A DNA stretch of 64,000 nucleotides from an uncultured Pelagibacteraceae bacterium (lineage in GTDB: Bacteria > Pseudomonadota > Alphaproteobacteria > Pelagibacterales > AG-422-B15). The notes beneath the pieces are model-generated. The model did not search any database and was not told the origin of the DNA. It saw only the letters and a list, made by a program, of their open reading frames with translations. Shown one piece after another: positions 5,165 through 30,108 of this stretch; position 1 is the stretch's first letter; each line of letters begins with the position of its first letter. The stretch lies in the NCBI GenBank assembly GCA_902624455.1, contig CACNXQ010000001.1:333828-397827 (forward strand). The letters run 5' to 3'. The translations under genes were made by a program, and so were the position numbers.

Positions 5165-5178
5165 CTATAATTTAACTT

Positions 5179-13423: not shown

Positions 13424-14788
13424 ATGGATTTCAAAAATGTTGCAGTTATAGGTTGTGGTAAGCTTGGCGGCACCATGGTAGGTTGTTTAGCAAGTAGAGG
13501 CTTTAATGTCACTGCTGTAGACGTATCTGAGGCTGCTGTTAATGCTCTTAATAATGGTGAAGCACCGGCACAAGAAAATGGATTAGATGAACTTATTGCA
13601 GCAAATAAAGAGAAGATAACAGCTACAATGTCTCACGAAGATGCAATCCTAAAAAGTGATATTAGTTTTGTTATAATTCCAACGCCAAGCGATAAAAGTG
13701 GTGCTTTCACAAATCAATATGCAATTCACGCATTTAAAGAAATTGGAAAAGCACTTGCAAAAAAAGACTCTTATCATACAGTTGTTTTAACAAGCACAGT
13801 AATGCCTGGCTCTACACGATCAGTATTGTTGCCGGTACTTGAGGAAAACTCGGGAAAAAAATGTGGTGAAGATTTCGGTCTTTGTTATTCACCTGAATTC
13901 ATAGCCCTTGGAACAGTCATTAGAGACTATCTTAATCCTGACTTTTATCTAGTTGGAGAGTTTGATAAACAATCTGGAGATTATCTTGAATATGTTAACA
14001 ATGCTGTAGCACTCAATCATGCACCAACTAAAAGAATGACTCTAGAAAATGCAGAACTTGCAAAGATTGCTGTTAATAGTTTTGTAACAATGAAAATAAG
14101 TTATGCCAATATGCTCGCTGATATGTGTGAAAAAATCCCAGGCGGTAATGTTGATGTTGTTTCAGATGCTCTAGGGATGGATAAAAGAATAGGCAGACAC
14201 TATCTCACCGGTGGTTTTGGATACGGAGGACCATGTTTTCCACGTGACAATGTCGCATTAGACTATGCTGGAAGAAAGCTCGGTGCTAATACTATTTTGC
14301 TGAGGACTAATGATGACTTCAATAGAAATATATCTCCAAGAATCGTAGAAAGAATAAATACCTATCTAAATGCTGACGATACCGTTTCAGTATTAGGTTT
14401 GTCTTACAAACCATTATCACATCTCATTGAAGAGTCTCCAGGTATTTATTTATGCGACTCACTTGCTAGTATGGGATATAGAGTTCTAGGATATGATCCA
14501 CTTGCAAATGAATATGCGAAACAGGCTCTAAAAAACACCCTCATCCTTGACGACTTAGAAGAATGCTTAAATCAGTCAAATGTTATTTTGGTAACCAATA
14601 ACGACGACGTGTTTACATCCTTGTCTGCCAATGATTATCTTGGGAATAAGGATAGTGTTACTATTGTTGACTTCTGGCGCTGTCTACCCGATGAAATTAA
14701 AAACGATTCAAGAATTACTTATGTTCCTCTTGGTAAATGCTTGGATGATGAAACAGCAGCTAAAAATCTTTCTTCTTTATGGAATTAG
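13424..14788 (+). CDS. Nucleotide-sugar dehydrogenase (UDP-glucose/GDP-mannose dehydrogenase family), copy 2
   Basis: VIGCGKLGGTMVGCLA, CYSPEFIALG, GGPCFPRDN, GLSYKP. Colinear with copy 1 at 1206-2558. Confidence 0.85.
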   Translation: MDFKNVAVIGCGKLGGTMVGCLASRGFNVTAVDVSEAAVNALNNGEAPAQENGLDELIAANKEKITATMSHEDAILKSDISFVIIPTPSDKSGAFTNQYAIHAFKEIGKALAKKDSYHTVVLTSTVMPGSTRSVLLPVLEENSGKKCGEDFGLCYSPEFIALGTVIRDYLNPDFYLVGEFDKQSGDYLEYVNNAVALNHAPTKRMTLENAELAKIAVNSFVTMKISYANMLADMCEKIPGGNVDVVSDALGMDKRIGRHYLTGGFGYGGPCFPRDNVALDYAGRKLGANTILLRTNDDFNRNISPRIVERINTYLNADDTVSVLGLSYKPLSHLIEESPGIYLCDSLASMGYRVLGYDPLANEYAKQALKNTLILDDLEECLNQSNVILVTNNDDVFTSLSANDYLGNKDSVTIVDFWRCLPDEIKNDSRITYVPLGKCLDDETAAKNLSSLWN

Positions 14789-14883
14789 ATTTTTAATATT
14801 TTATAAGTTTTTTTGTCTATATTGCGTCTATCTATAGTTAAAATCTTTACTTTTTGTAATTACTAATGCAATAAGTAACTAAG

Positions 14884-17800
14884 ATGAATATTCTATTTGT
14901 TTTCTACGGAGACGCGAGATCTAACTCATTTAATCCTCTGGATATTCTCATGCGATCGCTTTATGACAGGGGTCATAATATAGCCGTAGCAATGCCCAAC
15001 AATGCCAAAGCGATAAGTCCTAAATATAAATCTTTTACATTCCAAAAAATATTTAAAAATAATTTAAAAATTTTCAGAAATAATAATACAGCTGATATTT
15101 TACATGTTATCTCACCAAGGTCAGTTAATATTAATTTTTTATCCAAATATTTAAAAATAAAACCTACACCCTTTTTAGTTTTTCTTGAGGACAATGAAAC
15201 TTATATAACAAAAAACATAATAAATAAATTTGTTGGTAAAGAATACTTAATGAGTGACAATGATTATATTAATATTTTAGGTGGCCAACTTACAAAAAAA
15301 TCAGCTTATATTAGCACACTTCTTTTAGCAGATAAAATAGTAACAATTAATGAAACCATTCAAAATGATTTTCCAATCAAGCTAAATTTTGAAAACATTT
15401 TACCTGGAATTGATCTTGAATTTTTTTCAAATAAGGTAAATCCATCAGATAATTTTTTAAAAAAATATCAACTCGACTTAAAAAAAAATAAATATATTAC
15501 ATTTCCAGGAGGAATTAATTATTTTACTCTTAAACCGGCAATAGAATTGATAAAAGGAGTAAATCTTTACAACAGAAAAAATAATCAAAATATTCAATTG
15601 ATTTTTTCTGGTCCGGATGGTCCAGAAAGAGAAAAAATAAATGATTTTGTTAAAAAAAATAATATTCAAAACTTTAGATACATTGGTTTTATAGATAGAA
15701 AAAATATGCCGAATTTTCTATCAATTTCTGAAATATTGATACAACCAGGTAAGCAAAATGATTTTGAAGAGCTTAGATTTCCAGGAAAGATAGCTGAATA
15801 TTTGGCCATGGGCAAACCTGTCATATTGCCAAACACTAGCATCGCTAGAAAAATTAACTTAAAAGTCAAATCTGAAATTTTGCTTAATGGAAACTCTACT
15901 GAAATTGCAGAAAAACTAAGATTATTACTTAGCGACAATCATCGGTTAAAGCAAATTTCTATGTCGAGTCGAAAATATGCAGAATTGAATTTTGATATTA
16001 GATCCACAGTAAAGAAGTATGAGTTAATTTATTTCAAAATAAGAAAAAACACTAAAAAATTCAATATATTAAGAGATATTTCGTTTAATAATATTGAGGT
16101 AAGTGCAATAAAAATTCTTTTAGAAAACTATAAAAACAAAAATAAAGAACTATTGTTAAATTTAATTAGTAAAATAAATAAAGATAGAACAGAGAAGGAT
16201 ATAAATTATTTTTTAGTCAGAAACAAAAATGAAAAACTTATTCATCTCGAAGAGTCTTTTGATAGGCTCGCAATAAAATATAACAAGCAAGTTGAAAATA
16301 GTAGAAATGAGATTGAAAAACTTCAAAAAGAGATACAAGTTAGAGATAATCAAATACATGGCTTGCTTACTTCGAAAAGTTGGAAAATTACAAAACCAAT
16401 TCGGATTATATATCAACTTCTAAAACTGATAAGAAGCTGTTTTGTACTTATCAAGTTCTTGAATACTAGAAATATAAAAAAAATAATACAATATTTACCA
16501 CGTGATAAAAAACTGAGTAATACCATAAAAACTATTAATCACTACGCAGAGCAGTTAAACAATAAAAAAATATTTGTTAATCGATATAATGAGTGGATTC
16601 AAAGAGAAGAGGATTTTAATTTAAACGATGTTAAAGTAATAAGAAATAAATTACAGAGCATTAAATTAAAGACAAAGTTTTCAATTTGTATGCCTGTATT
16701 TAATCCTAATCCGATTTATTTAAAAGAAGCAATAGACTCAGTAATAAATCAAATTTATCAAAACTGGGAATTATGTATTGCTGATGATGCGTCAACTAAT
16801 CCTGAGATAAGAAAGATTTTAAAATACTATGAATCACAGTACAGAAATATAAAAGTTATTTATCGTAAAGAAAATGGCCATATTTCAAAAGCATCAAATT
16901 CTGCTATAAGAGTTTGTACTGGAGACTATATAGGTTTTTTAGATCATGACGATAAATTATCACCTCATGCACTTCTATGGGTCGCTGCAGAAACAAAAAA
17001 TAATCCAAGAGCTCAAATAATATATTCAGATGAAGATAAAATAAATGAAGCTGGAAATCATGATGGACCATATTTTAAGCCCAATTTTAGTCCTGAACTA
17101 TTCTATTCGCATAATCTTATAACTCATTTTGCAATTTATAAAAAAAATATCATTAAAAAAATAAAAGGTTTTAGAAGTAAGTTTGATGGAGCACAAGACT
17201 ATGATCTTGCCCTTAGGGCTCTTTCGGAATGTGGTGAAAAAAATATTTCTCACATTCCAAAGATACTATATCACTGGAGACAGCATTCGGATAGTACTGC
17301 GTTAGACAGTAACGCTAAGCCATATGCAATGTTAGCTGGTGAAAAAGCACTAAACGAGTATTTTAATTCAAACAAAATTCCATATAAAGTAAAATATATT
17401 GGCAGTGCTTATAAACTTCTTGGAAAACTTCCTAAATCAAATCCTAAAATTAGTATAATTATACCATCAAATAATCTTGATAATTTAAAAATTTGTATAA
17501 ATAGTATTATTAAAAAATCTACTTACAAAAACTACGAAATTGTTGTGATTGCAAATAACAAGTTAAATGTAAAAGATGTAATTAATATTTTTCCAAATTT
17601 AATTAATTTAAAAGTTCTGAATTACAAAGGTGAATTTAACTACTCAAAGTTAAATAATTTTGGCGCAAAGAAATCTAAAGGTAAATATTTGTTGTTTTTA
17701 AATGATGATACTGAAGTAATTAGCTCAGACTGGCTGGAAGTCTTACTTGGGTTTGCTTCTATTAGAGAAGTTGGAGCTGTGGGATTAAAACTTATATATA

Positions 17801-18297
17801 AAAACAATACTGTGCAACATGGAGGTATTGTACTAGGTATCAATAATTGGGCTGGGCATGCTTTTAGAGGATTCCCAAAAGACTCTCCTGGATCTAATCA
17901 TCGACTGTCACTTGTATCAAATTTTTCAGCTGTTACTGCGGCTTGTTTAATGATCTCAAAAGTTAAATTTGATTTAGTAAGAGGTTTTAATGAAAAAGAA
18001 TTAAAAGTTGCATGCAATGATGTAGATTTTTGTTTAAGTTTAATGAATAAAGGCTACAGAAATGTATATTGTGGACATACTTCAATTTACCACTATGAGT
18101 CAATTTCAAGAGGTTATGAAGATACTCAAGAAAAGAAAAAACGTTTTGATCATGAATCTAGTTATGTAATTAACAAATGGAGAGATTTATTTAAAAATGA
18201 TCCTCACTATAATCCTAATTTAACTGATAAAACTGAAAATTTTGATTTAGCAGACAAACCTAGAATAGAAAAAATTCCTCAAATCATATATCAATAA
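14884..18297 (+). CDS. Three-domain glycosyltransferase: N-terminal GT4 (GT-B), coiled coil, then two tandem GT2 domains
   Basis: GT4: RFPGKIAEYLAMGKPVILPN. Coiled coil around aa 450-495, followed by SKSWKITKPIR (nt 16372-16404). GT2-1 from nt 16678: FSICMPVFNPNPIYLKEAIDSVINQIYQNWELCIADDAS. GT2-2 from nt 17449: ISIIIPSNNLDNLKICINSIIKKSTYKNYEIVVIANN. Confidence 0.8.
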   Translation: MNILFVFYGDARSNSFNPLDILMRSLYDRGHNIAVAMPNNAKAISPKYKSFTFQKIFKNNLKIFRNNNTADILHVISPRSVNINFLSKYLKIKPTPFLVFLEDNETYITKNIINKFVGKEYLMSDNDYINILGGQLTKKSAYISTLLLADKIVTINETIQNDFPIKLNFENILPGIDLEFFSNKVNPSDNFLKKYQLDLKKNKYITFPGGINYFTLKPAIELIKGVNLYNRKNNQNIQLIFSGPDGPEREKINDFVKKNNIQNFRYIGFIDRKNMPNFLSISEILIQPGKQNDFEELRFPGKIAEYLAMGKPVILPNTSIARKINLKVKSEILLNGNSTEIAEKLRLLLSDNHRLKQISMSSRKYAELNFDIRSTVKKYELIYFKIRKNTKKFNILRDISFNNIEVSAIKILLENYKNKNKELLLNLISKINKDRTEKDINYFLVRNKNEKLIHLEESFDRLAIKYNKQVENSRNEIEKLQKEIQVRDNQIHGLLTSKSWKITKPIRIIYQLLKLIRSCFVLIKFLNTRNIKKIIQYLPRDKKLSNTIKTINHYAEQLNNKKIFVNRYNEWIQREEDFNLNDVKVIRNKLQSIKLKTKFSICMPVFNPNPIYLKEAIDSVINQIYQNWELCIADDASTNPEIRKILKYYESQYRNIKVIYRKENGHISKASNSAIRVCTGDYIGFLDHDDKLSPHALLWVAAETKNNPRAQIIYSDEDKINEAGNHDGPYFKPNFSPELFYSHNLITHFAIYKKNIIKKIKGFRSKFDGAQDYDLALRALSECGEKNISHIPKILYHWRQHSDSTALDSNAKPYAMLAGEKALNEYFNSNKIPYKVKYIGSAYKLLGKLPKSNPKISIIIPSNNLDNLKICINSIIKKSTYKNYEIVVIANNKLNVKDVINIFPNLINLKVLNYKGEFNYSKLNNFGAKKSKGKYLLFLNDDTEVISSDWLEVLLGFASIREVGAVGLKLIYKNNTVQHGGIVLGINNWAGHAFRGFPKDSPGSNHRLSLVSNFSAVTAACLMISKVKFDLVRGFNEKELKVACNDVDFCLSLMNKGYRNVYCGHTSIYHYESISRGYEDTQEKKKRFDHESSYVINKWRDLFKNDPHYNPNLTDKTENFDLADKPRIEKIPQIIYQ

Positions 18298-18336
18298 AGG
18301 ACGTAAAATGCTTATGGTAAGATTTTAAATATCAAT

Positions 18337-19758
18337 ATGATTAATAATAAAAATTTAGCAGTTGATTTGGATGGAACTTTAATCAAGACTGATATACTCT
18401 TTGAAAGTATCTTAATTTTCATAAAAAAAAATCCTCTGAATATATTTAAATTATTTAGCTGGCTTTTAAATGGACGACTATTTTTAAAAAAAAAACTTTC
18501 TGAAATTGTTTGTCCTTCAGTTGAAAATTTGCCCTACAATAAGGATGTAATTAATTTTATTCACAAAAAAAAACAAGAAGGATTTAAAATAATACTTGCT
18601 ACTGCCACTATTAATACAATTGCAAACAAGATCTCAAATTATTTAAATATTTTTGACGACGTAGTTGCTTCATCTAATGAGAATCTGTCTGGAAAGTATA
18701 AAGAAGCAGCTCTAGTAAGCATGTTTGGTAAAAATAACTTTGAATATATTGGAAACTCAACAAAAGATGTGAATGTTTGGGAGTCATCCTCAAAATGTCA
18801 TTTGGTTAAACCAACAAAAAAAATATTAAATAAAATAAAAAGTAGAAAATTAGGTGAGATATTTGTAAATAACCTGTCTTTCCTTAAAATTTTTTTCTCA
18901 GCAATAAGAATTCATCAGTGGGTAAAGAACATTTTATTATTTATACCTCTAGCTGCTGCACATTTACTTTTTGAGATCGATCTATTAATTAATGGGCTAA
19001 TTGCATTCTTATGCTTCGGACTGTGTGCATCTTCAATTTATCTATTTAATGATTTGATTGATATTGAAGACGATAGAAATCATGAAGATAAAAGAAATAG
19101 ACAGCTGGCTGCTGGGAATTTAACTATAATGGGTGCACTCTTTTTGATTGCAGTGTTACTGACTATATCATTTACTTTCTCATATATCCTATTACCTATA
19201 AACTTCTTATTAATTATTCTATTGTATATTTTCATAAATATTTTTTATTCAATTTATTTAAAAAATATTATTTTACTTGATTTGTTTTTACTTGCTTTTT
19301 TGTATACATTGAGACTGATTGCAGGAGCAGAGGCGATGTATTTAGAAACTACTTTTTGGATTATAACTTTTTCAATGTTTATTTTTTTTAGTTTAGCTGT
19401 TGTCAAACGATATACAGAGTTTGTGAGGAAAGGAAATAATAATGAAGGTGCAATAAAGGTTCGAAGTTACACTGATCGTGATAAATTATTTTTATTTATT
19501 CTTGGTATAACTACTGGACTAATTTCTGTTTTAGTTCTTGCACTCTATATTAATGAAGTAAGTAGAATTGATATTTATCCTCAAAAAGAATTACTTTGGT
19601 TTTCTTGTCCTTTACTCTTTTATTGGATGACAAGAGTGTGGCTGTTGGCTAGTAGAGGTGAAATGAATTATGATCCAGTAATATTTGCAATAAAGGATAA
19701 TCAAAGTAGATTTATTGGAATTTTATTTTTATCTGTATTCTTAATGTCTGCAATATGA
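18337..19758 (+). CDS. HAD-phosphatase / UbiA-family polyprenyl-phosphate phosphoribosyltransferase fusion (Rv3806c-like)
   Basis: HAD motif I LAVDLDGTLIKTD and motif IV IGNSTKDVNVW in aa 1-170. The C-terminal polytopic domain carries the UbiA Asp-rich motif NDLIDIEDDRNHEDKRNRQLAAG. 4-nt overlap with the DprE1-like gene. Confidence 0.75.
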   Translation: MINNKNLAVDLDGTLIKTDILFESILIFIKKNPLNIFKLFSWLLNGRLFLKKKLSEIVCPSVENLPYNKDVINFIHKKKQEGFKIILATATINTIANKISNYLNIFDDVVASSNENLSGKYKEAALVSMFGKNNFEYIGNSTKDVNVWESSSKCHLVKPTKKILNKIKSRKLGEIFVNNLSFLKIFFSAIRIHQWVKNILLFIPLAAAHLLFEIDLLINGLIAFLCFGLCASSIYLFNDLIDIEDDRNHEDKRNRQLAAGNLTIMGALFLIAVLLTISFTFSYILLPINFLLIILLYIFINIFYSIYLKNIILLDLFLLAFLYTLRLIAGAEAMYLETTFWIITFSMFIFFSLAVVKRYTEFVRKGNNNEGAIKVRSYTDRDKLFLFILGITTGLISVLVLALYINEVSRIDIYPQKELLWFSCPLLFYWMTRVWLLASRGEMNYDPVIFAIKDNQSRFIGILFLSVFLMSAI

Positions 19759-21068
19759 AAAACAGTTATCTGTCATGGGGAAGGTATCCCAATATTCCGC
19801 AAAAAGCGGAGATTATTTATTGGCCTAACAATGTAATTTCAAAAATCAATGCTGTCATTGAGAATAATGATACCACTTTAGCTTATGGCTTAGGTCGAAG
19901 TTATGGAGATTCATGTTTAGCAAACAGCAACAATATTTTAAATATGCAAAATATGGACAGAATTATTTCATTTGACAAACAAAGTGGAATAATTGTCGCT
20001 CAATCTGGAATTTCAATTGAACAAATCTCTAAAATATCCATACCTAATGGATGGTTTGTACCTGTGAGCCCAGGTACAAAGTATGTGACTTTAGGAGGAG
20101 CCGTTGCTAATGATGTACATGGCAAAAATCATCATAATGCAGGTACATTTGGCTGCCACGTCAATAGTTTTAAAATTTACAGATCTAAAGAGGGCATTCT
20201 CGAATGTTCAGAGAACTTACACCCAGAACTCTTTAAAGCAACGATTGGTGGTTTGGGCTTAACAGGTATCATTCTGCAAGTTGAATTTAGGCTAAAGAAA
20301 ATAAACTCATCAAGAATTCAGGTTAATAATATTAAATTTAATAATATAGATGAATTTTTTGAATTAAGTAACTTGCACGATAATAATCACGAATATACAG
20401 TTTCATGGATTGATTGTTTATCTCAGGGAAAAAATCTTGGAAGAGGAATTTATTCGTATGCTGATCACCTCGATGATAATTTTTTAGAATTTAGTAACTC
20501 AAAAAAGATAAATTTCCCATTTGAAATTCCATTTTCACTTGTTAACTCTTTTACATTAAAATCATTTAATTCATTCTATTACAATAGCCAGTTTAAAAGC
20601 AAAAATTCAAAAATTACTGACTATGAAAGTTTTTTATATCCATTAGATAAAATTTTAAATTGGAATCGAATGTACGGAAAAAAAGGATTTGAACAATTCC
20701 AATGCGTGATACCAAAAACTAACGGAAAACAAGTATTAAAAGATATATTAAAAACGATAACAAAATGTAACAACGGTTCATTTTTATCGGTATTAAAACA
20801 AACTGGAGATATAGTTTCTCCAGGAATTTTATCATTCCCTATCCCGGGATATTCGCTTGCTTTGGATTTTCCTCAAAAAAGTAATAGTAATGATGTTTTA
20901 TTTAGGAAACTTGATCAAATTGTCCATGAAGCTGGAGGCAGGCTTTACCCCGCTAAAGATGCACATGTAAGTAAATTGAATTTTCAGTCATCTTACCCTA
21001 ATTGGCATAAAGTAGAAAATATGCGTGATAAAACTTTAATGTCAAAATTTTGGGAGAGAGTTGCATGA
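19755..21068 (+). CDS. DprE1-like FAD-dependent polyprenyl-phospho-ribose 2'-oxidase
   Basis: Blocks shared with M. tuberculosis DprE1 as recalled: GLGRSYGD, VPVSPGTKYVTLGGAVANDVHGKNHHNAGTFG, LGLTGII, WNRMYGKKGFEQFQCVIP, SFLSVLK, LSFPIPGYSLALDFP, GGRLYPAKD. Confidence 0.85.
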   Translation: MKNSYLSWGRYPNIPQKAEIIYWPNNVISKINAVIENNDTTLAYGLGRSYGDSCLANSNNILNMQNMDRIISFDKQSGIIVAQSGISIEQISKISIPNGWFVPVSPGTKYVTLGGAVANDVHGKNHHNAGTFGCHVNSFKIYRSKEGILECSENLHPELFKATIGGLGLTGIILQVEFRLKKINSSRIQVNNIKFNNIDEFFELSNLHDNNHEYTVSWIDCLSQGKNLGRGIYSYADHLDDNFLEFSNSKKINFPFEIPFSLVNSFTLKSFNSFYYNSQFKSKNSKITDYESFLYPLDKILNWNRMYGKKGFEQFQCVIPKTNGKQVLKDILKTITKCNNGSFLSVLKQTGDIVSPGILSFPIPGYSLALDFPQKSNSNDVLFRKLDQIVHEAGGRLYPAKDAHVSKLNFQSSYPNWHKVENMRDKTLMSKFWERVA

Positions 21069-21817
21069 AAAAATCAAAAACTGTTGCTATTTTTGGTGCC
21101 ACTTCAAACATAGCTGAAGCAGTTGCAAGAATTTATTCAAAAGAAGGTGCAAGCCTTGTTTTAGTTGGAAGAGATATGGAAAAATTAGAAATTATAATGA
21201 GTGACCTCCTAATCAGAGGAGCAAAAGAAGTTAAATTAATAATTAATGATCTTTCAATTGAAAGTCAATCAGAGAAACTTGTTGATGATGTTTGGAATCT
21301 ATTTGAAAGTATTGATATTGCTTTAATTGCACCCGGTACATTACCAACACAGAATGTAGCAAACAAAGATATTGCTTACGCACGGAAACATTTTAGATTT
21401 AATTCTGAGACAATTATAATTTTATTATCACTGATAGCAAAAAAATTTATAACTCAAAAATTTGGAAATATTTCAGTAATAAGTTCTGTTGCAGGGGACC
21501 GGGGTAGAAAAGATAATTTTTTATATGGCGCTGCAAAATCCGCTGTCTCAGTTTTTACAAGTGGTTTAAGAGGTATGATGCAAGAGCATGGTGTGTCCGT
21601 AATGACTATCAAGCCGGGATTTGTAAAAACATCAATGACTAGAGATGTCCAATTTCCATCCTTATTATCAGCTACTGCTGATAGAGTTGCTAACGATATT
21701 GTTAAATCAATAAATAATGGTCGTGATGTAGTTTACACACCGTCGTTCTGGAAAATAATAATGATCGTAATAAAAATAATTCCGGAGAGTATATTTAAAA
21801 AAATTAACTTTCGGTAG
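21065..21817 (+). CDS. DprE2-like short-chain dehydrogenase/reductase
   Basis: AIFGATSNIAEAVA, SSVAGDRGRKDNFLYGAAKSAV, IKPGFVKT, and the DprE2-type C-terminus PSFWKIIMIVIKIIPESIFKKI. Start set at ATG 21065 (ATGA overlap) rather than the ORF-track 21050. Confidence 0.8.
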   Translation: MKKSKTVAIFGATSNIAEAVARIYSKEGASLVLVGRDMEKLEIIMSDLLIRGAKEVKLIINDLSIESQSEKLVDDVWNLFESIDIALIAPGTLPTQNVANKDIAYARKHFRFNSETIIILLSLIAKKFITQKFGNISVISSVAGDRGRKDNFLYGAAKSAVSVFTSGLRGMMQEHGVSVMTIKPGFVKTSMTRDVQFPSLLSATADRVANDIVKSINNGRDVVYTPSFWKIIMIVIKIIPESIFKKINFR

Positions 21818-21828
21818 CTACATTTGGA

Positions 21829-23991
21829 GTGATAAAATTAGTAATGGTAGCCATTAATTCATTCAAAAATACAATTTCTTTAATTACTATTTTTTCAGTA
21901 CTTATTACAATTTTTGGAGTTTTCTCAAATTTTAGTAGTATTCCTTACTGGGATATGTGGGATGGGTATCTCAATTTCTATCTTAAGATTCAAAATGGAC
22001 AATATTATGAGTGGTTTGCACTACATAATGAACATAGGATATTTTTATCAAGAATACTGTTCTTTATAGATATAAAGATTTTTAATAATCAGAGTTATTT
22101 TTTAGTATTATGTAATCTATTATTTTTATCTTTTGCAGTATTAATATTTATTACTTTTCTCAGAAATAATTTTTCATTTAAAGATTATAGTACGGTATAT
22201 CTTGTTATTGTTTGTCTTTTATTTTCTTGGATACAGGAAAACAACTTAATCATTGGTTTTCAAACAGCATTTGTATTAGCTCAACTAATTCCATTAGTCG
22301 CATTTTATTATTTTTTTAAGTCAATTAATCATCTCGACCAAAGAACAAACTTTTTTATAATTTCAATTTTTTTTGGTTTCTTATCTAGTTATACACTTAT
22401 TTCTGGTATTTTTGTTTTACCAATTCTTACTTTTTATTGCTTTATTGTTGGTTTTAAAAAAGAGTACTTAATTTCTCTAATTATAGTTACAGCTATTTCA
22501 CTAATTTTGTATTTCTTTTCTTATCAATCTGTAGAACATCATGGGTCCATTCAAGATGCAATATTGCATAATCCTTTGGATTTTATAAATTATGTATTTT
22601 TATATTTTGGTGGCCCTTTTTATTATTTTTTTGGAAAAGGTGAAACAGGGATGAATTTAGCATGGATTGCTGGATTTATTTTTATCTTTCTTTCGCTATA
22701 TTATTTTTTTTATTATTTAAAAAAACAATCATTTATAAATTATTATGGATGGTTATATTGTTTTATCTTATATGTAGGATTGACAGCTGCAGCGACAGCA
22801 GGAGGAAGGCTTATTTTTGGTGCTAGCCAGGCATTGTCTAGCCGATATATGACTCCTGTAATTTTTTCTTGGGTGTGCCTAATAATAATAACAGTTTATT
22901 ATTTATATAAAGAAAATAATATAAATGAGAAGTACAAGAAATTCCTTCAAATATTTTTTTCAATATTTCTATATTTATTAGTCATAGTTATTGTTTTTTT
23001 TCAGTTGCGAGTATTTTCATATGATAATGATATTAATTTTGAAAAAAATATTGCTGCACTAAGTATTAAAATGGACGTAAAAGACATAGCTCAAATTCAA
23101 AGTGTTTACCCAAATTTTGATATGCCATTAAATGTAAAAAATAAAATGAATGATATTGGAAAAGATATTTTTAACTTTGATCCTTTCAAGGATATTTCAT
23201 TCGATAGTAAATATCACAGACAAAAAAACTTTAATAAAAAATTTTCAAACAAGTGCATTGGTGAAATCGATAATATTTCATTTGCAGGTGACAATTTAAT
23301 GAAGATTTCGGGTTGGATTTATAGTCCAGATGAAAAAGCTATCTCAAAAAAATTATACGTTCTTAATTCAGATAATAAATTAATTGGTTTTATCCTTACC
23401 GGAAAAAAAATGTCTCTAATAAAAGAGATGTACGGAAAAAATGCTTTAAACTCAGGATTTAAGGGATACATATTAAATAAAAACGATACAATTAACAGTT
23501 CCAAAATAAAATTCGTAAGCTATGAACAAGATTGTGAACTCTCTATTGACAATGGTTTAGATAATATTCCAATGTTTAGGATTAAAGAATTTGAGGACGT
23601 GGATGAAAACAGTATCGTTAGACCTGAGGCTATATTAAGTACTGAATGGTTAGGGCAAGATTATTACAGTGTTTGGTCTGGTACTGCTACTCTACCGTTA
23701 AAGTACAATATATATGGTTCATTCAGTGTGTCAGACGCTGAGTCAGGATCAATTACATTAAGACTGAATAAGGGGCAGGGCTTTTTCTTTAGATCTGAAC
23801 CAAATTCTAAAATTCAATACATGCAAATTAATGGTGGCGAGAAATTTTTTATTCCAAGAGATATTCCTCCAGCCTCAGAGTGGTTATTTCTGGAATTTAA
23901 CAACCCATCACTACCAGATACTTTTAATGTTGAAATTACTGACGAAGGTGCTGGATGGGGAGAGTGGTCTGCAGTAGGATTGATAAGATAA
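21829..23991 (+). CDS. Polytopic membrane protein with about 290-aa C-terminal soluble domain; candidate GT-C-type (arabinosyl)transferase
   Basis: About 11-13 hydrophobic helices across aa 1-400. The first loop carries acidic/aromatic YWDMWDGY...HNEHRIF. The C-terminal 430-720 is hydrophilic. It lies immediately downstream of the DPA-type genes. No family motif recognised with certainty. Confidence 0.4.
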   Translation: MIKLVMVAINSFKNTISLITIFSVLITIFGVFSNFSSIPYWDMWDGYLNFYLKIQNGQYYEWFALHNEHRIFLSRILFFIDIKIFNNQSYFLVLCNLLFLSFAVLIFITFLRNNFSFKDYSTVYLVIVCLLFSWIQENNLIIGFQTAFVLAQLIPLVAFYYFFKSINHLDQRTNFFIISIFFGFLSSYTLISGIFVLPILTFYCFIVGFKKEYLISLIIVTAISLILYFFSYQSVEHHGSIQDAILHNPLDFINYVFLYFGGPFYYFFGKGETGMNLAWIAGFIFIFLSLYYFFYYLKKQSFINYYGWLYCFILYVGLTAAATAGGRLIFGASQALSSRYMTPVIFSWVCLIIITVYYLYKENNINEKYKKFLQIFFSIFLYLLVIVIVFFQLRVFSYDNDINFEKNIAALSIKMDVKDIAQIQSVYPNFDMPLNVKNKMNDIGKDIFNFDPFKDISFDSKYHRQKNFNKKFSNKCIGEIDNISFAGDNLMKISGWIYSPDEKAISKKLYVLNSDNKLIGFILTGKKMSLIKEMYGKNALNSGFKGYILNKNDTINSSKIKFVSYEQDCELSIDNGLDNIPMFRIKEFEDVDENSIVRPEAILSTEWLGQDYYSVWSGTATLPLKYNIYGSFSVSDAESGSITLRLNKGQGFFFRSEPNSKIQYMQINGGEKFFIPRDIPPASEWLFLEFNNPSLPDTFNVEITDEGAGWGEWSAVGLIR

Positions 23992-24930
23992 ATGAATGAT
24001 AAAAGAATAATTTTAACTGGCGGTGCTGGCTTAGTAGGTCTCAATTTAATACCAAGATTATTGAAAAAAGGCTATAGAAACATACTAGTTTTAGATAAAC
24101 ACAAGGATAATATTTTAATCGCGAGAAAGCTCTTTCCAGATATTGAAATCGAAGAAGCTGACATTTCCGAAAGAGGCAATTGGACTAAATATCTTGAAGC
24201 TGGGTCTGTTATTATTATGTTGCAAGCTCAAATAGGTGGAAATAAATTTATTGATTTTGAGAAAAATAACGTAACTTCTACGCACAACATAATTGAAGAG
24301 ATTAAACATAAAACAAATATTCGCCTTATTCATGTTAGCTCATCAGTCGTAGAGTCGATAGCTGATGACTACTATACAAACTCAAAAAAAACCCAAGAAA
24401 AATTGGTTATAGATAGCGGTCTTAAATGTGTTATTTTGAGGCCAACTCTTATGTTTGGATGGTTTGACCGTAAACACCTTGGTTGGTTATCAAGATTTAT
24501 GCAAAAGATACCAGTATTCCCTATTCCAGGAAATGGAAAATTTATAAGACAGCCATTATATGCTGGAGATTTTTGTAATGTAATAATAAGCTGTATCTCT
24601 AATCAAGAAATAAATGGTATTTTTAATATTTCGGGGTATGAAAAAATTTTTTATATTGATTTAATAAAAAAGATAAAACAAATTATCTCGGCAAATACTT
24701 ATATCGTTAAGATACCATTTTTAGTTTTTTATTTTCTTATCTGGTTATGGAGTTTATTCGATAAAAATCCACCTTTCACAACTCAACAATTAGTCGCACT
24801 TAGTAATGATGAGGAATTTGAAATTATTGATTGGGCAAAAATTTTTTCGATCTCTTGTTATACACTTGATGAAGCTCTTAACGAAACTTTTAATGATAAA
24901 ACATTCAGTAAAATAAAAATGAAATTTTAG
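23992..24930 (+). CDS. NAD-dependent epimerase/dehydratase-family protein with C-terminal hydrophobic segment
   Basis: ILTGGAGLVGLNL Rossmann motif and YxxxK (YTNSK). Hydrophobic IPFLVFYFLIWLWSLF near the C-terminus. Abuts the upstream stop (TAAATG). Confidence 0.7.
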   Translation: MNDKRIILTGGAGLVGLNLIPRLLKKGYRNILVLDKHKDNILIARKLFPDIEIEEADISERGNWTKYLEAGSVIIMLQAQIGGNKFIDFEKNNVTSTHNIIEEIKHKTNIRLIHVSSSVVESIADDYYTNSKKTQEKLVIDSGLKCVILRPTLMFGWFDRKHLGWLSRFMQKIPVFPIPGNGKFIRQPLYAGDFCNVIISCISNQEINGIFNISGYEKIFYIDLIKKIKQIISANTYIVKIPFLVFYFLIWLWSLFDKNPPFTTQQLVALSNDEEFEIIDWAKIFSISCYTLDEALNETFNDKTFSKIKMKF

Positions 24931-24935
24931 CAACA

Positions 24936-26231
24936 ATGAGTGATAAAGGGAAAATTGCTGTACTAGGAGCCGGACCAATGGGACTTGCAGTGGCCTACCA
25001 GCTAATTTTAGATGGCTACAAACCTATTGTATTTGAAGCAGATGATAGAGTAGGCGGAATGACTGCAAGTTTTGATTTTAATGGTTTAAATATTGAAAGA
25101 TACTACCACTTTCATTGTACATCAGACAAAGCATTCTTACAGATATTGACCGATTTAAATATAAAACATTTATTTCATTGGAAAGAAACAAAAATGGGGT
25201 ACTGGTACTTAAATAGACTACAAGAATGGGGAAATCCTCTGGCACTTTTAAAATTTAAAGGGTTAAGTTTTCTGTCAAAAATTCGATACGGCATTCATGC
25301 TTTCACATCAACAAAAAGGTCAAATTGGATAAAATTAGATAAGTTAAGTGCAAAAGAATGGATTATTAAATGGGTAGGAGCAGAAGCATTTGATATATTA
25401 TGGCGAAAACTATTCGAGTATAAATTTTATCATTTTAGTGATTCAATTTCTGCAGCTTGGATATGGAGCAGAATAAGACGATTAGGTAATTCAAGGTATA
25501 ATATATTTAGAGAAAAGCTTGGATATTTAGAGGGTGGATCTGAAACTCTTCTTTTCGCTCTTAAGAGAAACATACTTTCAAACGGAGGTGAAATACACTT
25601 ATCAACATCTATAAAAGAGGTTCAATTAGAAAATAATAAAGTTTCTGGATTACGAACAGAAAAAAATTTTTATGAATTTGAGAATGTGATTAGTACAATT
25701 CCTTTACCATACATACCGAAAATAATACCAAAGTTACCAAAAAAAATACTTGAAAAGTATTCCAACATCAAAAATATTGCCGTTGTTTGTGTGATTGCGA
25801 AGCTATCAGAGAAAGTTTCTGATAATTTTTGGGTAAATGTTAATGATCCAGAAATGGATATTCCTGGATTTGTAGAATACTCAAATCTTAGACCTCTTCA
25901 AAATAGTATTGTATATGTCCCTTTTTACATGCCAGGTGAACATTCTTACTATAATGAACCTGACAAATTTTTTATAGAAAAAGTAAAATTATATTTAAAA
26001 AAAATCAATTCTCGTATTGATGAAAAAAAATTCATAGATATTAAAGCTAGTAGATATAGATTTGCACAACCAATATGTGAAACAAATTTTTTAGATCAAT
26101 TACCACCTATCAATTTGCCTATTAAAGGGTTATATGTTGCAGATACATCTTATTACTACCCAGAGGATAGGGGAATTTCTGAAAGTGTTGAGTTGGGTAT
26201 AAAAATAGCTAAAAGTATCAAAGTTGATTAA
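24936..26231 (+). CDS. FAD/NAD(P)-binding oxidoreductase (amine-oxidase / phytoene-desaturase / UGM-like superfamily)
   Basis: Dinucleotide motif IAVLGAGPMGLAVA...FEADDRVGGM. 431 aa. Substrate unknown. Confidence 0.65.
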   Translation: MSDKGKIAVLGAGPMGLAVAYQLILDGYKPIVFEADDRVGGMTASFDFNGLNIERYYHFHCTSDKAFLQILTDLNIKHLFHWKETKMGYWYLNRLQEWGNPLALLKFKGLSFLSKIRYGIHAFTSTKRSNWIKLDKLSAKEWIIKWVGAEAFDILWRKLFEYKFYHFSDSISAAWIWSRIRRLGNSRYNIFREKLGYLEGGSETLLFALKRNILSNGGEIHLSTSIKEVQLENNKVSGLRTEKNFYEFENVISTIPLPYIPKIIPKLPKKILEKYSNIKNIAVVCVIAKLSEKVSDNFWVNVNDPEMDIPGFVEYSNLRPLQNSIVYVPFYMPGEHSYYNEPDKFFIEKVKLYLKKINSRIDEKKFIDIKASRYRFAQPICETNFLDQLPPINLPIKGLYVADTSYYYPEDRGISESVELGIKIAKSIKVD

Positions 26232-26631
26232 ATTTTTTTTTACAAAACAATTTTTAAAATTTTTTGCAGTTGGATTAAGCGCAGCTTTTATACATTGGTT
26301 ATCTCGAGTATTATTAAATTTCTATTTTTCATTTTATTGGTCCGTATTTATTGCTTATTTTTTTGGAATTTTAAGTGCGTATATCTTAAATCGTATTTAC
26401 GTGTTTCCAAATTCAAATAAAAGCATGTATGAACAAATATATAAATTCTTTATTATCAATTTATCTTTCTTGCCAATCGTATGGTTTTGTTCAATATTTA
26501 TTTATTCCTTATTAATAAAATTTGGTATAGACTTTTACCCAGAGGCAATCGCACATGGAATGGCAGTGTCGTTGCCAATGCTTATAACTTTTATTCTTTA
26601 TAAATTTTTAGCTTTTGCAGATTATAAATAG
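26224..26631 (+). CDS. GtrA-family small membrane protein
   Basis: 135 aa with 4 predicted helices. FLKFFAVGLSAAFIHW resembles the GtrA N-terminal motif. TTG start overlaps the upstream stop by 8 nt. Confidence 0.65.
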   Translation: MIKFFFTKQFLKFFAVGLSAAFIHWLSRVLLNFYFSFYWSVFIAYFFGILSAYILNRIYVFPNSNKSMYEQIYKFFIINLSFLPIVWFCSIFIYSLLIKFGIDFYPEAIAHGMAVSLPMLITFILYKFLAFADYK

Positions 26632-27290
26632 TGGAACAAGAAAAACTATCAGAATTATATAAAATAAGGTTTCAAGAAGAAATTTTAAGTAGAAAGAATG
26701 ATATTTGGAAAGTTCTATGCTCTGATTTTTTCCAAAAATTTATTCCAGAAAATTCAACAGTAGTTGACTTAGCATGCGGATATGGCGAGTTTATTAATAA
26801 TGTGGAAGCTTCAAATAAAATAGCATTTGACCTTAATGAAGAAAGCAAAAACTTTCTTAATAATGATGTTAAGTTTCATGAAAAATCTGTCATGGAACTC
26901 AATAAGCTTTATAATGAAGAAATTGACGTTATATTTACATCCAACTTTCTTGAGCATTTAGAAAATAAGAAAGCATTAGAGCAATTATTAGCAGAAATAT
27001 ATAGAACACTAAAAATTGGAGGTAAATATATAATTTTAGGTCCAAACCTCAGATATTTAAACGGTTCATATTGGGATTTTTATGATCATCACCTCGGATT
27101 AACTCATATTTCTCTTCAAGAAGCACTTAGATTAAATGGTTTTAAGATTGATCTTTGCTATGCCAAATTTTTACCATTTACTATGCAGGGATCACTTCCA
27201 ACACACCCACTCTTAGTTAAGATTTATTTAAATGTAAAATTTGCTTGGAAATTATTGGGCAAGCAATTTTTTATAGTTGCTAGCAAATAG
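26631..27290 (+). CDS. Class I SAM-dependent methyltransferase
   Basis: VVDLACGYGEF (motif I), DVIFTSNFLEHL, LKIGGKYII. GTG start overlaps the GtrA stop by 1 nt. Confidence 0.7.
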   Translation: MEQEKLSELYKIRFQEEILSRKNDIWKVLCSDFFQKFIPENSTVVDLACGYGEFINNVEASNKIAFDLNEESKNFLNNDVKFHEKSVMELNKLYNEEIDVIFTSNFLEHLENKKALEQLLAEIYRTLKIGGKYIILGPNLRYLNGSYWDFYDHHLGLTHISLQEALRLNGFKIDLCYAKFLPFTMQGSLPTHPLLVKIYLNVKFAWKLLGKQFFIVASK

Positions 27291-27300: not shown

Positions 27301-28353
27301 TTATGGTGACAGCTTCTTTTCTATATGAAGTAGAAATAAATAAATAAATAATTGAGCAAACGAAATTATAAAAAATGTATTTAAGTATCCGATTACATCA
27401 CCATAATAATATATTAATACAGAAATAAACGAAAGATATAGAAGGATTAGTATTGATGTTAAAGAATTTGGATTTATGATTAAAAATCTATTTAAAAATT
27501 TATTTTCATTAATGTTATATTTTAGCAGCCGAAAAAGTACCGAATGTAAATGTTTGTCATCTGGCTTTAGTGGATTTTTTTTGTTAATCAAGAGTCGTCT
27601 CCAAAAAGATATAAATAGATCATTTACAGGATAACTAATCAAACAAGCTATTAATGTAGCGTAAATTAATTCGTTATTAGCAATATATATACTTAATGAG
27701 CCAATCAAAAATCCTAAAAAATATGCTCCACAATCACCTGACAAGATCTTTCCTGTAGTAATATTGACTAAAAATAATACAAATATACTTAAAAATAAAA
27801 TTTCTATTAAGTATAATATTTCAGAATTTGTATTTTCTGCATAAATATAAAAATTTATAAGAATTATAATTGTTACGCCACTCATAAGTCCATTGTTTCC
27901 ATCAATAAAATTGAAACCATTAATACAAAACAAAAGACCAATTATTGTAAATATATAGGGTATAATTTGGTATGAATTGAATATAGTATTTAGGACATTG
28001 TGATCTAAATTATCTAATACAAAATTATTTCTAAATAAAAAAATTAAAATAATTAGTGTCATAAGAATAAATCTTATTTTACCACTGAATTTTTCATTTA
28101 AATCAGCAATAAATCCAATCATCATAAATAATAGGCTAAAAATTATAATTTCAAATATTAATGGATCGCTTACAAAAAATACGGTCGTATAAAATGAAAG
28201 CATTGAGGCGCCTCCTATTTTTATTACAGTTCTATTATGTATTTTCCTTATATTTTCTGACGGCTCATCCAAAAATAATTTTGTCTTATGACTAAGAGAA
28301 AAAATAATTAAAAGAATAAGTATTGAAATAAATAATGTTATTATAATATGCAT
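27301..28353 (-). CDS. WecA/WbpL/MraY-family polyprenyl-phosphate hexosamine-1-phosphate transferase (initiating GT)
   Basis: Polytopic, 350 aa. LFLDEPSENIRKIHNRTVIKIGG and NGFNFIDGNNGLMSG match GT4 (MraY-like) family motifs. Confidence 0.8.
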   Translation of the reverse strand: MHIIITLFISILILLIIFSLSHKTKLFLDEPSENIRKIHNRTVIKIGGASMLSFYTTVFFVSDPLIFEIIIFSLLFMMIGFIADLNEKFSGKIRFILMTLIILIFLFRNNFVLDNLDHNVLNTIFNSYQIIPYIFTIIGLLFCINGFNFIDGNNGLMSGVTIIILINFYIYAENTNSEILYLIEILFLSIFVLFLVNITTGKILSGDCGAYFLGFLIGSLSIYIANNELIYATLIACLISYPVNDLFISFWRRLLINKKNPLKPDDKHLHSVLFRLLKYNINENKFLNRFLIINPNSLTSILILLYLSFISVLIYYYGDVIGYLNTFFIISFAQLFIYLFLLHIEKKLSP

Positions 28354-28370: not shown

Positions 28371-29627
28371 ATGATTCAAAATTCTAAAATTATTAAATTC
28401 TCAAGTATTTTATTTTACTTAATTCCTCTTGCCCTCTTAACTGGTCCATTAATTCCAGATTTGATTGTATCAATAATTTCCATAATATTCCTATATTATT
28501 CCTACACAAAAAAATTGAAAAAATATTTTACAAATAAATTTTTTATTTTTTTTATGATCTTCTATATATATTTAATAATAAATTCACTTTTATCTGAGTA
28601 TACTTTATTTTCTCTCGAAAGTAGTATTTTTTACTTTAGATTTGGTATTTTTTCATTGGCTACTTGGTTCCTGATTGACCACAATGATGATTTTTTTTCT
28701 TATTTTAAGATTATATTTCTTATTACTTTTTTGTATGCGATTTTTGATGGTTACATCCAACATCTTTATGGGGTAAATTTCCTTGGTTTTGGAATAAAAG
28801 ATATATCAAGATTAAGCTTACCATTTAATGATAAATTAATACTTGGTGGTTATCTTGCTAGACTTTTCGTAATTCTCATTGCTTTACTATTGTTGGGCAA
28901 ACAGAATATTTATAAATATTTATTTTTTGCGATTATTTTGGTGCTAACAGATGTCTTAATTTACGTTTCTGGTGAAAGAACTGCATTAGGCTTAATGTTT
29001 TTATCAACTATTTTAATTATTTCTTTCCTTAACAGCTATCGATCTTTAAGAGTAATTACCTTTTTATTGTCAATTTGTACGATAATTTTTTTAACCATTT
29101 CAAATGAACAATTAAAAGAAAGAAATATCAGTCAAACCCTGAATCAGCTTGGTTTTAGCTCACAAAGTGACAAAATCAATATTTACTCACCAATTCATGA
29201 AAGCCATATCATATCAGCTTACAAAATGTTTAAAGACAGTCCTTTGATAGGTAAAGGAGTGAACACGTTCAGAAAATATTGTAACGAACCTGAATACAAC
29301 ATCGATATTCATTCTTGTTCTACTCATCCGCATAATTCATCAATACAAATTATGGCAGAGACAGGTATTGTAGGATTTTTAGTAATTCTGAGCATTAATA
29401 TGTATATTTTTTCCCTTCTAATAAAAAATTTGTACTTAGAAATTAAAGGGAAAAAAAGGATACTTAGCAATTATCAAATATTGCTGCTAATATCAATTTT
29501 ATTAACTGTTTGGCCATTTTTTCCAACTCAAAATGTTTTTAATAATTGGATAAACATTATTTATTATTTCCCAGTTGGATTATACTTACATTCAATTTAT
29601 TCTAATAAACCATATGTGGATAGTTAA
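28371..29627 (+). CDS. O-antigen ligase / Wzy_C-domain membrane protein (WaaL, Wzy or PglL-type O-oligosaccharyltransferase)
   Basis: About 10-12 TM helices, SGERTALG, and a periplasmic-loop His motif STHPHNSSIQIMAETGIVG typical of Wzy_C. Confidence 0.7.
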   Translation: MIQNSKIIKFSSILFYLIPLALLTGPLIPDLIVSIISIIFLYYSYTKKLKKYFTNKFFIFFMIFYIYLIINSLLSEYTLFSLESSIFYFRFGIFSLATWFLIDHNDDFFSYFKIIFLITFLYAIFDGYIQHLYGVNFLGFGIKDISRLSLPFNDKLILGGYLARLFVILIALLLLGKQNIYKYLFFAIILVLTDVLIYVSGERTALGLMFLSTILIISFLNSYRSLRVITFLLSICTIIFLTISNEQLKERNISQTLNQLGFSSQSDKINIYSPIHESHIISAYKMFKDSPLIGKGVNTFRKYCNEPEYNIDIHSCSTHPHNSSIQIMAETGIVGFLVILSINMYIFSLLIKNLYLEIKGKKRILSNYQILLLISILLTVWPFFPTQNVFNNWINIIYYFPVGLYLHSIYSNKPYVDS

Positions 29628-30108
29628 AAAATCTAAAGTTCATGGGCATGGAGTTTTTGCTAATTCAAAAATCTCGAAATCAGAAAAGATAATTGAATAT
29701 ATCGGTGAAAAGATTTCAAAAAAAGAAGGTGATAAAAGATCTAACGCGAGATTAACAAAATATCTAGGTTCAAAAAAAACAGGTTCAGTCTATATTTTTG
29801 AATTAGATAAGAAATATGATATTGATGGATCACCATTATATAATAAGGCAAGATACATTAATCACTCATGTGATCCAAATTGTGAGGTAGAAATTTCAAA
29901 TGGGAGAATTTGGATCTCATCAATAAAAAATATTAAAAAGGGTGAGGAGCTTACCTATGATTATGGTTATGAGTTTGACTCGGATGACTATAAGGACCAC
30001 GTATGTAAATGTGGATCAAAAAAGTGTATAGGTTATATTATTTCATCAGATGATTGGCCTAAATTTGGAAAATTTATCAATAGACTTATTAAAAAACGCA
30101 ATAAATAA
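29614..30108 (+). CDS. SET-domain protein-lysine methyltransferase with Cys-rich post-SET
   Basis: SKVHGHGVFA, RYINHSCDPNC, GEELTYDYGY, and post-SET CKCGSKKCIG. Start set at ATG 29614 (14-nt overlap with the upstream gene). The ORF-track start 29575 would add a hydrophobic non-SET extension. Confidence 0.8.
   Translation: MWIVKKSKVHGHGVFANSKISKSEKIIEYIGEKISKKEGDKRSNARLTKYLGSKKTGSVYIFELDKKYDIDGSPLYNKARYINHSCDPNCEVEISNGRIWISSIKNIKKGEELTYDYGYEFDSDDYKDHVCKCGSKKCIGYIISSDDWPKFGKFINRLIKKRNK

Follow-up and report, generated by a model that had tools for sequence, protein, structure and literature searches.

Evidence for a large unclassified GT-C family linked to lipid-phospho-pentofuranose pathways, with a member in a surface-glycan operon of an uncultured Pelagibacteraceae bacterium

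The DNA studied here, called the window, is a stretch of 64,000 nucleotides from an uncultured Pelagibacteraceae bacterium (GenBank assembly GCA_902624455.1, contig CACNXQ010000001.1, positions 333,828 to 397,827 of the forward strand), and our subject, the target, is the gene at 21844..23991 (+) together with its product. An earlier note, made from the sequence alone, had proposed that this gene encodes a novel GT-C arabinofuranosyltransferase. We consider it probable that the protein is a periplasm-facing glycosyltransferase of GT-C fold that performs the last step of an operon-encoded, extracytoplasmic pentofuranosylation pathway. Our results also support the view that the protein and its homologues make up a GT-C family, large and so far unclassified, that serves a DprE1/DprE2-linked lipid-phospho-pentofuranose pathway and no other, a function that is predicted for all members. 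From the earlier proposal, the GT-C fold (by Foldseek comparison) and the new sequence family stood. The concept was not new: Kelly et al. 2024 (PMC11127046) had already described systems of this type, so that novelty is confined to the sequence family and its gene cassette, and arabinofuranose (Araf) as the transferred sugar became uncertain.

The gene is an uninterrupted open reading frame (ORF) on the forward strand. Read from the GTG at 21829 to position 23991 it encodes a hydrophobic protein of 720 aa, as the earlier note had it; the ATG at 21844 is the likelier start, because it yields the 715 aa of a public protein (P0001, 100% identical) and because the N-termini of 59 homologues align in register with it. 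Such a frame did not arise by chance, given about 720 codons in DNA of 28% guanine plus cytosine (GC) and homologues at E = 1e-131. The stop of the DprE2-like gene (21817) is separated from the GTG by the 11 nt reported earlier and from the ATG by 26 nt, and a gene for a short-chain dehydrogenase/reductase (SDR) begins at 23992, abutting the target with zero gap.

To obtain the fold, AlphaFold2 was run on an alignment of 60 sequences (the target and 59 homologues; residue numbers follow the 715-aa form). The full-length model had a predicted local distance difference test (pLDDT) of 90.3 and a predicted TM-score (pTM) of 0.86, and a second model of residues 1-400, built separately to remove dilution by the C-terminal beta-domains, reached pLDDT 92.5 and pTM 0.92. 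Foldseek comparison of the full-length model with the PDB returned, for the membrane part, EmbB as the top match, and STT3, PglB, AftA, ArnT, AftD, PMT and ALG3. Matches of the membrane domain with a probability of at least 0.5 were GT-C enzymes exclusively (STT3, AglB, PglB, ArnT, AftA, AftB, EmbA/B, ALG3, PMT), and the TM-scores (TMq) of the membrane-only model were 0.53 for AftB, 0.52 for AglB, 0.51 for STT3, 0.47 for PglB, and 0.38 for both ArnT and AftA. Transporters, receptors and every other fold stayed at a probability of 0.14 or less and a TM-score of 0.20 or less, and no structure of Wzy, WaaL, SEDS, MurJ or Wzx was among the best 50 matches. On these confident models we assign the protein to the GT-C fold; an identity as a transporter, Wzy or WaaL, which includes outcomes that the earlier note had named as contrary to its proposal, was rejected on the same fold grounds.

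The membrane domain, delimited by DSSP helices and K+R density, comprises residues 1-392 (21844..23019, +) and contains 11 transmembrane (TM) helices, one fewer than the dozen or so estimated earlier. The C-terminal periplasmic region, residues 393-715 (23020..23988, +), is also somewhat different from the soluble domain of about 290 aa that had been described. It is about 320 aa long and, by the secondary structure of the model, consists of a helical linker (residues 393-465) and two beta-sandwich domains, the first at about 466-575 (23239-23568, +) and the second at about 579-715 (23578-23988, +). Foldseek matched this region to the carbohydrate-binding module (CBM) at the C-terminus of EmbC (3pty, probability 1.00) and to a CBM4-2 (1k42, probability 0.97), and we regard the two beta-domains as probable acceptor-binding, CBM-like modules. 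A pair of cysteines in the first of them, C471/C564, is conserved in 56/60 sequences and fits a periplasmic disulfide.

Hydropathy on the model helices and the positive-inside rule over the 60 sequences place the N-terminus inside and the C-terminus outside. The density of K+R per residue is 0.15-0.28 in the proposed cytoplasmic loops versus 0-0.05 in the periplasmic ones, which are the first loop (EL1, residues 30-84; 21931..22095, +), the loops at 127-137, 225-266 and 326-333, and the entire C-terminal region. The acidic loop singled out by the earlier note is EL1, and it is periplasmic by this rule. It has short helices at 37-50 and 54-57 and an interfacial helix, and it carries the motifs PxWDMWDGY (with D37 at 21952-21954) and HNEHR (22024-22038); the YWDMWDGY and HNEHRIF segments noticed in the earlier note correspond to residues 35-42 and 61-67 and are the most conserved stretch of the family. 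D37 and W39 are kept in 59/59 sequences, H61, N62 and E63 in 59/60, H64 and R65 in 60/60, and D40 in 42/60. Because D40 is kept in 42/60 sequences, D37, eight residues past TM1, is the better candidate for a catalytic base, and we refer to it as the putative base; its placement directly after TM1 matches that of the catalytic Asp of GT-C enzymes (PMC11127046). Every invariant polar residue lies on the periplasmic side (D37, H64, R65, W129, Q131, N134, Q140, Y254, R322, R334 and Y335). Within this set R334-Y335, at the periplasmic start of TM10 (22843..22848, +; both 60/60), are candidate contacts to the phosphate and sugar of the donor, by a parallel, drawn without alignment, to R349/Y350 of the GT136 founder ORF12.

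The protein is absent from known sequence families. Pfam and NCBIfam searches with the target gave no family match, the lone NCBIfam hit (SLATT_5, 17.8 bits versus a cut-off of 60) being noise. Across the 60 aligned members, Pfam at E <= 10 returned no GT-C model, no other family and no EpsG, and the Emb domains (Arabinose_trans and related), PMT/PMT_2, STT3 and Wzy_C were unmatched. Searches of PDB sequences with phmmer and with the 60-sequence profile gave noise only (UPK1B, E 0.6), and the WWDYG motif of STT3/PglB/AglB is absent from the target sequence. What the earlier note had said of the single protein, that it could be matched to no named GT-C family, therefore extends to all 60 members in Pfam, NCBIfam and PDB sequence searches.

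When 1.84 billion representatives at 50% identity were searched exhaustively with the profile, the family numbered 9,922 sequences at E <= 1e-3, 5,947 at <= 1e-10 and 2,022 at <= 1e-30. The family occurs in two forms, one of about 700 aa with two beta-domains and one of about 565 aa in which domain 2 is absent. The 80 best loci come mostly from Betaproteobacteria (Oxalobacteraceae and other Burkholderiales), Gammaproteobacteria and Alphaproteobacteria, with single loci in Desulfosarcina, Syntrophales, Anaerolineales, Gracilibacteria, Gimesia and Actinomycetes including Smaragdicoccus; the outlier phyla are Actinomycetota, Chloroflexota, Patescibacteria and Planctomycetota. Culturable carriers include Pseudomonas nitroreducens S00179, Janthinobacterium sp., Achromobacter pestifer LMG 3431 and Cellvibrio sp. 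Wherever the source names the protein, it is a "hypothetical protein".

The homologues share a conserved gene neighborhood. We took the best 80 loci in species-representative genomes, located the window neighbors in them by tblastn, and counted as fully flanked the 57 of 80 with at least 6 kb on both sides. Homologues of the UbiA-type gene were found in 60 of the 80 loci, of DprE1 in 61, of DprE2 in 60, of the SDR in 66, of a flavin adenine dinucleotide (FAD) oxidoreductase in 63 and of a GtrA-family protein in 51. The UbiA/DprE1/DprE2 trio lies within 10 kb in 46/57 fully flanked loci, in agreement with the co-occurrence that the earlier note had anticipated, and all six genes are present in 41/57. 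Their usual fixed order is PPPRS-DprE1-DprE2-target-SDR-FAD oxidoreductase-GtrA, where PPPRS denotes the UbiA-type enzyme. DprE2 is directly upstream of the target homologue in 41/80 loci and the SDR directly downstream in 42/80; in 47/80 the SDR is 500 nt or less away from it. The same cassette is found in annotated Polynucleobacter and on a Rhodobacteraceae plasmid.

The SDR/FAD oxidoreductase pair is at least as tightly linked to the target as DprE1/DprE2. The two pairs occur together in 58/80 loci; none of the 57 fully flanked loci has DprE1/DprE2 without the SDR/FAD pair, and three have the target, the SDR and the FAD oxidoreductase without DprE1/DprE2. One of these three is a Mycobacteriales genome, which makes decaprenyl-phospho-arabinose (DPA) with housekeeping genes.

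In the window, ten genes from 13424 to 27290 are separated by gaps of -19 to +95 nt, and because of this close spacing we treat them as one operon. The upstream DPA genes are present as the earlier note claimed. The first is a fusion of PRP (HAD) and PPPRS (UbiA) domains (18337..19758, +; PRK08238 at 538 bits, DPPR synthase models at 1e-39, Pfam UbiA and a weak HAD match, DLDGT motif), which is predicted to make polyprenyl-P-ribofuranose from phosphoribosyl pyrophosphate (PRPP). It is followed by a DprE1-like FAD oxidase (2'-OH to 2'-keto; 19755..21068, +; Pfam FAD_binding_4 and NCBIfam DprE1 at 1e-105, the score of 355 bits falling under the equivalog cut-off of 500) and by a DprE2-like SDR reductase (2'-keto to arabino; 21050..21817, +; YGAAK motif), which matches PRK07102 above cut-off at 280 bits and the NCBIfam DprE2 model below cut-off at 4e-48. 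Downstream of the target lie the extended SDR, an "epimerase/dehydratase" and cassette member (23992..24930, +; Pfam Epimerase, GGAGLVG, Y128xxxK), the FAD oxidoreductase of the amine-oxidase/phytoene-desaturase superfamily (24936..26231, +; PRK07233 at 525 bits, Pfam Amino_oxidase) and the small GtrA-family membrane protein (26224..26631, +; Pfam GtrA_DPMS_TM, 6e-12). The catalytic motifs of these enzymes are intact: DLDGT (HAD), the Asp-rich motif (UbiA), GxxGxxG and YxxxK (SDR), and GxGxxG (flavoprotein).

Taken together, these results suggest the following pathway. The PRP-PPPRS fusion would transfer ribose-5-P from PRPP onto polyprenyl phosphate and strip off the 5-phosphate, leaving polyprenyl-P-ribofuranose, which the DprE1-like and DprE2-like enzymes would turn into polyprenyl-P-D-arabinofuranose by inversion at C2. 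This donor may be altered further by the SDR and the FAD oxidoreductase, which are conserved together with the other cassette genes. By analogy to Rv3789 and PsPA7_6247, we propose that the GtrA-family protein is a flippase for the lipid-linked donor, or a hub for it, and would assist its passage to the periplasmic leaflet. There the target would hold the lipid-phospho-sugar in a groove that has EL1 on one side and the upper end of the TM bundle on the other (H61-R65, R322, R334-Y335) and, with D37 as base, would transfer the pentofuranose, presumably as a single sugar and not processively, to a hydroxyl group on a polysaccharide of the cell surface. This acceptor is probably a polymer of O-antigen type, which the two CBM-like beta-domains may grip. 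A candidate for the polymerase of this acceptor glycan, whose role as acceptor we infer, is the 1137-aa multidomain GT4-GT2-GT2 glycosyltransferase of the same operon (14884..18297, +; Pfam), a homologue of which accompanies the target homologue in 21/80 loci.

Several observations weigh against this proposal. The Foldseek E-values of the GT-C matches are 1.7e-3 to 4e-4 at identities of 10-15%, and because of these modest values the assignment to GT-C rests on fold and not on detectable sequence homology. In 11/80 loci, those of Thiorhodococcus and Achromobacter aestuarii among them, no cassette gene is nearby, six of these loci having at least 7.6 kb on both flanks, and in the two cassette-less loci that were inspected the homologue lies among unrelated genes. 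The window showed no export genes of the Wzm/Wzt or Wzx/Wzy type. Among the 60 sequences, that of the window protein diverges most (at most 36% identity): residues 183-188 (22390-22407) read YTLISG in place of the near-invariant GTMANG, a short turn that lies in the periplasm between TM5 and TM6 and whose letters are held by 55-59 of the 59 homologues, and S141/Q142 deviate as well. Judged from these replacements, altered or lost activity of this particular copy is conceivable. Finally, the sugar need not be plain Araf, because the linkage of the SDR and FAD oxidoreductase to the target is at least as tight as that of DprE1/DprE2.

One tentative answer to the last point is that these two enzymes, the FAD oxidoreductase as oxidase and the SDR as reductase, act together as a second epimerase pair. 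Like DprE1 (a flavin oxidase) and DprE2 (an SDR reductase), but acting at C3, they might convert polyprenyl-P-Araf into polyprenyl-P-D-lyxofuranose or another modified pentofuranose; by our estimate this is possible, and the odds are against it. The pair weakly resembles HpnA, HpnE, phytoene desaturase and NDUFA9, and given these likenesses it may possibly act on the lipid tail instead. According to Kelly et al. 2024 (PMC11127046), no solved glycan structure contains lyxofuranose. Our literature search found no known pentofuranose-containing glycan for the carrier genera, and no follow-up on GT136 or lyxofuranose.

Among other functions for the target, we weighed a processive arabinan polymerase or a protein O-oligosaccharyltransferase, similar to EmbA/B/C or to TfpW, the pilin arabinosyltransferase of Pseudomonas (para)aeruginosa, that would produce oligo- or poly-Araf or modify pilin. 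In the target's favor as such an enzyme, its full-length model matches EmbB best and its C-terminal region resembles the CBM of EmbC, and TfpW too has 11 TM helices, an acidic loop-1 motif and donors that depend on DprE1/DprE2. Against these likenesses, no pilA is adjacent to the target, its C-terminus is made of beta-sandwiches where TfpW has TPR repeats, and no Emb Pfam domain was detected. The gene also sits in a lipopolysaccharide (LPS)-type glycan operon with a large Leloir polymerase, and the characterized proteobacterial polysaccharide system adds single side-chain residues. We therefore judge this alternative unlikely.

An ArnT-like modifier would place the pentofuranose on lipid A or on the core or inner region of LPS, and not on a repeat-unit polymer. 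ArnT is among the structural matches, a WaaL-type gene is adjacent in the window, and one short-form homologue without the cassette, in Achromobacter aestuarii (locus L069, 9983-15570), lies about 1.6 kb from waaA, the 3-deoxy-D-manno-octulosonic acid (Kdo) transferase gene, and heptosyltransferase genes; the latter locus hints at LPS as acceptor. The proximity to waaA is seen in one locus only, however, whereas a multidomain polymerase homologue is co-located in 21/80, and the one or two CBM-like domains, set beside a matched ArnT chain of merely 537 residues, suggest a polysaccharide acceptor. Such a modifier appears quite unlikely to us.

It is more doubtful still that the window copy is a decayed or neofunctionalized paralogue within a family of GT-C transferases. 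Its divergence would accord with such a history, as would the replacement of G183, M185, A186 and N187 (each kept in 55-59 of 59 homologues elsewhere) and of S141/Q142. Nevertheless, the ORF is unbroken and closely packed within an operon that is itself intact, the model is of high confidence, and all putative catalytic residues are retained (D37, H61-R65, R322, R334-Y335). The protein keeps 66/76 family-conserved positions, and in a test of 81 columns it keeps 71, within the family range (minimum 65). That the protein is no glycosyltransferase, and is instead a lipid-linked-sugar flippase or transporter, a Wzy-type polymerase or a WaaL-type ligase, as a polytopic membrane protein within a glycan locus might be and as the debated flippase role of GtrA itself might allow, is hardly credible in view of the fold matches given above, of a separate WaaL-type gene in the window (28371-29627), and of conserved residues that are polar, periplasmic and resemble a GT-C active site.

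The preferred reading, a periplasmic GT-C pentofuranosyltransferase, can be set beside related modules elsewhere, where PPPRS genes pair with other unannotated membrane proteins outside the target family. A plasmid of Burkholderia stagnalis (NZ_CP156687; locus L082, 5857-15240) carries the same six donor genes and a methyltransferase with a different, 811-aa hypothetical protein, whose weak likeness to the target family is confined to the first C-terminal beta-domain (hhalign E 6e-4, probability 28%); this cassette adjoins isonitrile synthase genes. On a Rhizobium leguminosarum plasmid (NZ_CP007047; locus L085, 668-7988), the order PPPRS-GtrA-DprE1-DprE2 is followed by two paralogous hypothetical proteins of about 519 aa. 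These have no Pfam match and show no relationship to the target family profile by hhalign, and they are candidates for further unclassified partners of DPA-type modules. The 443-aa and 476-aa PPPRS partners of Vibrio alfacsensis were likewise unrelated to the family profile by hhalign.

The family is essentially absent from phages. Among 2.9 million viral contigs we found only three distant relatives (L086-L088, IMG/VR; 26-28% identity), with no cassette genes nearby, and tblastn of PPPRS against phages gave one unrelated fragment. An origin from seroconversion phages was rejected because just these three cassette-less relatives occur on viral contigs.

The remaining operon genes encode a UDP-sugar dehydrogenase (from 13424; Pfam/NCBIfam) and a methyltransferase (from 26631; Pfam/NCBIfam). 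Beyond the operon lie a WecA-like initiating transferase (27301-28353, -; Pfam Glycos_transf_4, 5e-21) and the WaaL-type O-antigen ligase (28371..29627, +; Pfam Wzy_C, 1.5e-14), and the upstream side of the locus holds aminotransferases, a formyltransferase and further nucleotide-sugar genes. Because of these WecA-like, WaaL-type and nucleotide-sugar genes, we class the locus as LPS/O-antigen-type. In the segments 3117-6252 (-) and 10498-11691 (+) lie genes for two aminotransferases of DegT type, for a formyltransferase and for a GT2 enzyme, and this gene set suggests a formamido amino-sugar part of the same surface glycan. A 563-aa ORF within the glycan operon (11709-13400, +) encodes a soluble-looking protein that recalls a GT-A-type enzyme in its N-terminal part; a Pfam search with it gave no match. 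An odd neighbor for a surface-glycan locus is a SET-domain protein (29575-30108, +; Pfam 2.4e-26), whose gene overlaps the end of the WaaL-type gene.

The GC content of the window is about 30%, and its right half consists of housekeeping genes. The named relatives retrieved with the transketolase are Pelagibacteraceae (59-69% identity), and taken with the GC content they point tentatively to a marine alphaproteobacterium related to SAR11. The glycan island (235-31112) has a GC fraction of 0.26-0.33 versus 0.30-0.37 in the housekeeping half (36000-64000), and a tRNA lies at 36084-36155. These features fit a surface-glycan island that is variable, or exchanged horizontally, within a genome of SAR11-like kind.

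If these assignments hold, about 9,900 50%-identity representatives annotated as hypothetical can now be given a GT-C fold, a topology and a pathway, along with candidates for their catalytic residues. The pentofuranose side-chain pathway known from Citrobacter would be extended by a second, apparently sequence-unrelated GT-C family and by a seven-gene cassette that is distributed across Beta-, Gamma- and Alphaproteobacteria and outlier phyla. In an ocean lineage that is abundant (Pelagibacteraceae-related), DprE1/DprE2-dependent chemistry would be placed in the variable island for surface glycans, which are believed to influence how cells interact with phages and grazers. The SDR and the FAD oxidoreductase offer a lead toward possibly new lipid-linked sugar chemistry: should the lyxofuranose or modified-pentofuranose reading be true, the cassette would specify a widespread and chemically new surface-glycan decoration, also in a SAR11-like marine genome. 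For glycoengineering, the family and its invariant residues provide another candidate enzyme for furanose branches.

Of the known systems, ArnT (GT83) and STT3/PglB/AglB (GT66) resemble the target in being among the best structural matches of the membrane domain and in using polyprenyl-(di)phosphate-linked donors at the extracytoplasmic face; they share no sequence-family match with it, and their donors and acceptors differ. The mycobacterial arabinosyltransferases EmbA/B/C (GT53), AftA (GT85), AftB (GT89) and AftD have the GT-C fold in common with the target (TMq 0.38-0.53), EmbC shares the C-terminal CBM, and the donor enzymes of that pathway are homologous (UbiA-type PPPRS, DprE1, DprE2 and the GtrA-like Rv3789). 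In contrast, sequence identity to Emb and Aft is 10-12%, the target has no Pfam Emb or Aft domain and is much smaller than Emb and AftD, its family is mainly proteobacterial, and the mycobacterial pathway has a separate PAP2 phosphatase where the window has a fused HAD domain. TfpW, also a Gram-negative GT-C enzyme, has 11 TM helices too, its first periplasmic loop carries an acidic motif, its C-terminal part in the periplasm is large, and it depends on PPPRS, DprE1, DprE2 and GtrA-like genes. It differs in its C-terminal TPR, DDX motif, pilA neighbor and protein acceptor, whereas the target has beta-sandwich domains, a DMWD motif (with D40 variable) and an LPS-type operon.

The nearest comparison is the system of Citrobacter youngae O1/O2, in which Kelly et al. 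2024 (PMC11127046) described a lipid-P-pentofuranose synthase, a flippase and a GT-C enzyme. That enzyme, ORF12, founded CAZy family GT136 and uses undecaprenyl-P-ribofuranose or undecaprenyl-P-xylofuranose, for which an N-PRP/C-PPPRS fusion is the source. Its 11 TM helices are accompanied by a helical domain that follows TM1 and by a CBM at the C-terminus (residues 503-652), and in it D31, E34, H106 and R349 are essential and Y350 nearly so. It has also been reported that Araf-containing glycans have DprE1/DprE2 homologues, that "more elaborate" systems with several epimerases exist, and that the GT-C genes of such loci are mostly annotated as hypothetical (PMC11127046).

The target system departs from this prototype in several respects. 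CDD labels ORF12 as EpsG, and none of the 60 target members match EpsG (a comparison of descriptions, not of sequences), so that, as far as ORF12's description allows a test, the target family is distinct in sequence from GT136. The prototype flippase is of MATE/EamA type whereas the window candidate is of GtrA type, the target cassette holds DprE1/DprE2 and two further oxidoreductases, and the full-length target class has two C-terminal beta-domains. In its plan, however, the system is alike. The fusion in the window has the N-PRP/C-PPPRS domain order of ORF15, the GT4-GT2-GT2 enzyme resembles the multi-module polymerase ORF7 (PMC11127046), and both systems combine polyprenyl-P-ribofuranose, optional epimerases (DprE1/DprE2 for Araf), a small flippase and a periplasmic GT-C enzyme. 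The target also shares with ORF12 the 11 TM helices, the helical domain after TM1, a beta-rich CBM after TM11, an Asp directly after TM1 and a late Arg-Tyr pair, R334/Y335 in the target and R349/Y350 in ORF12.

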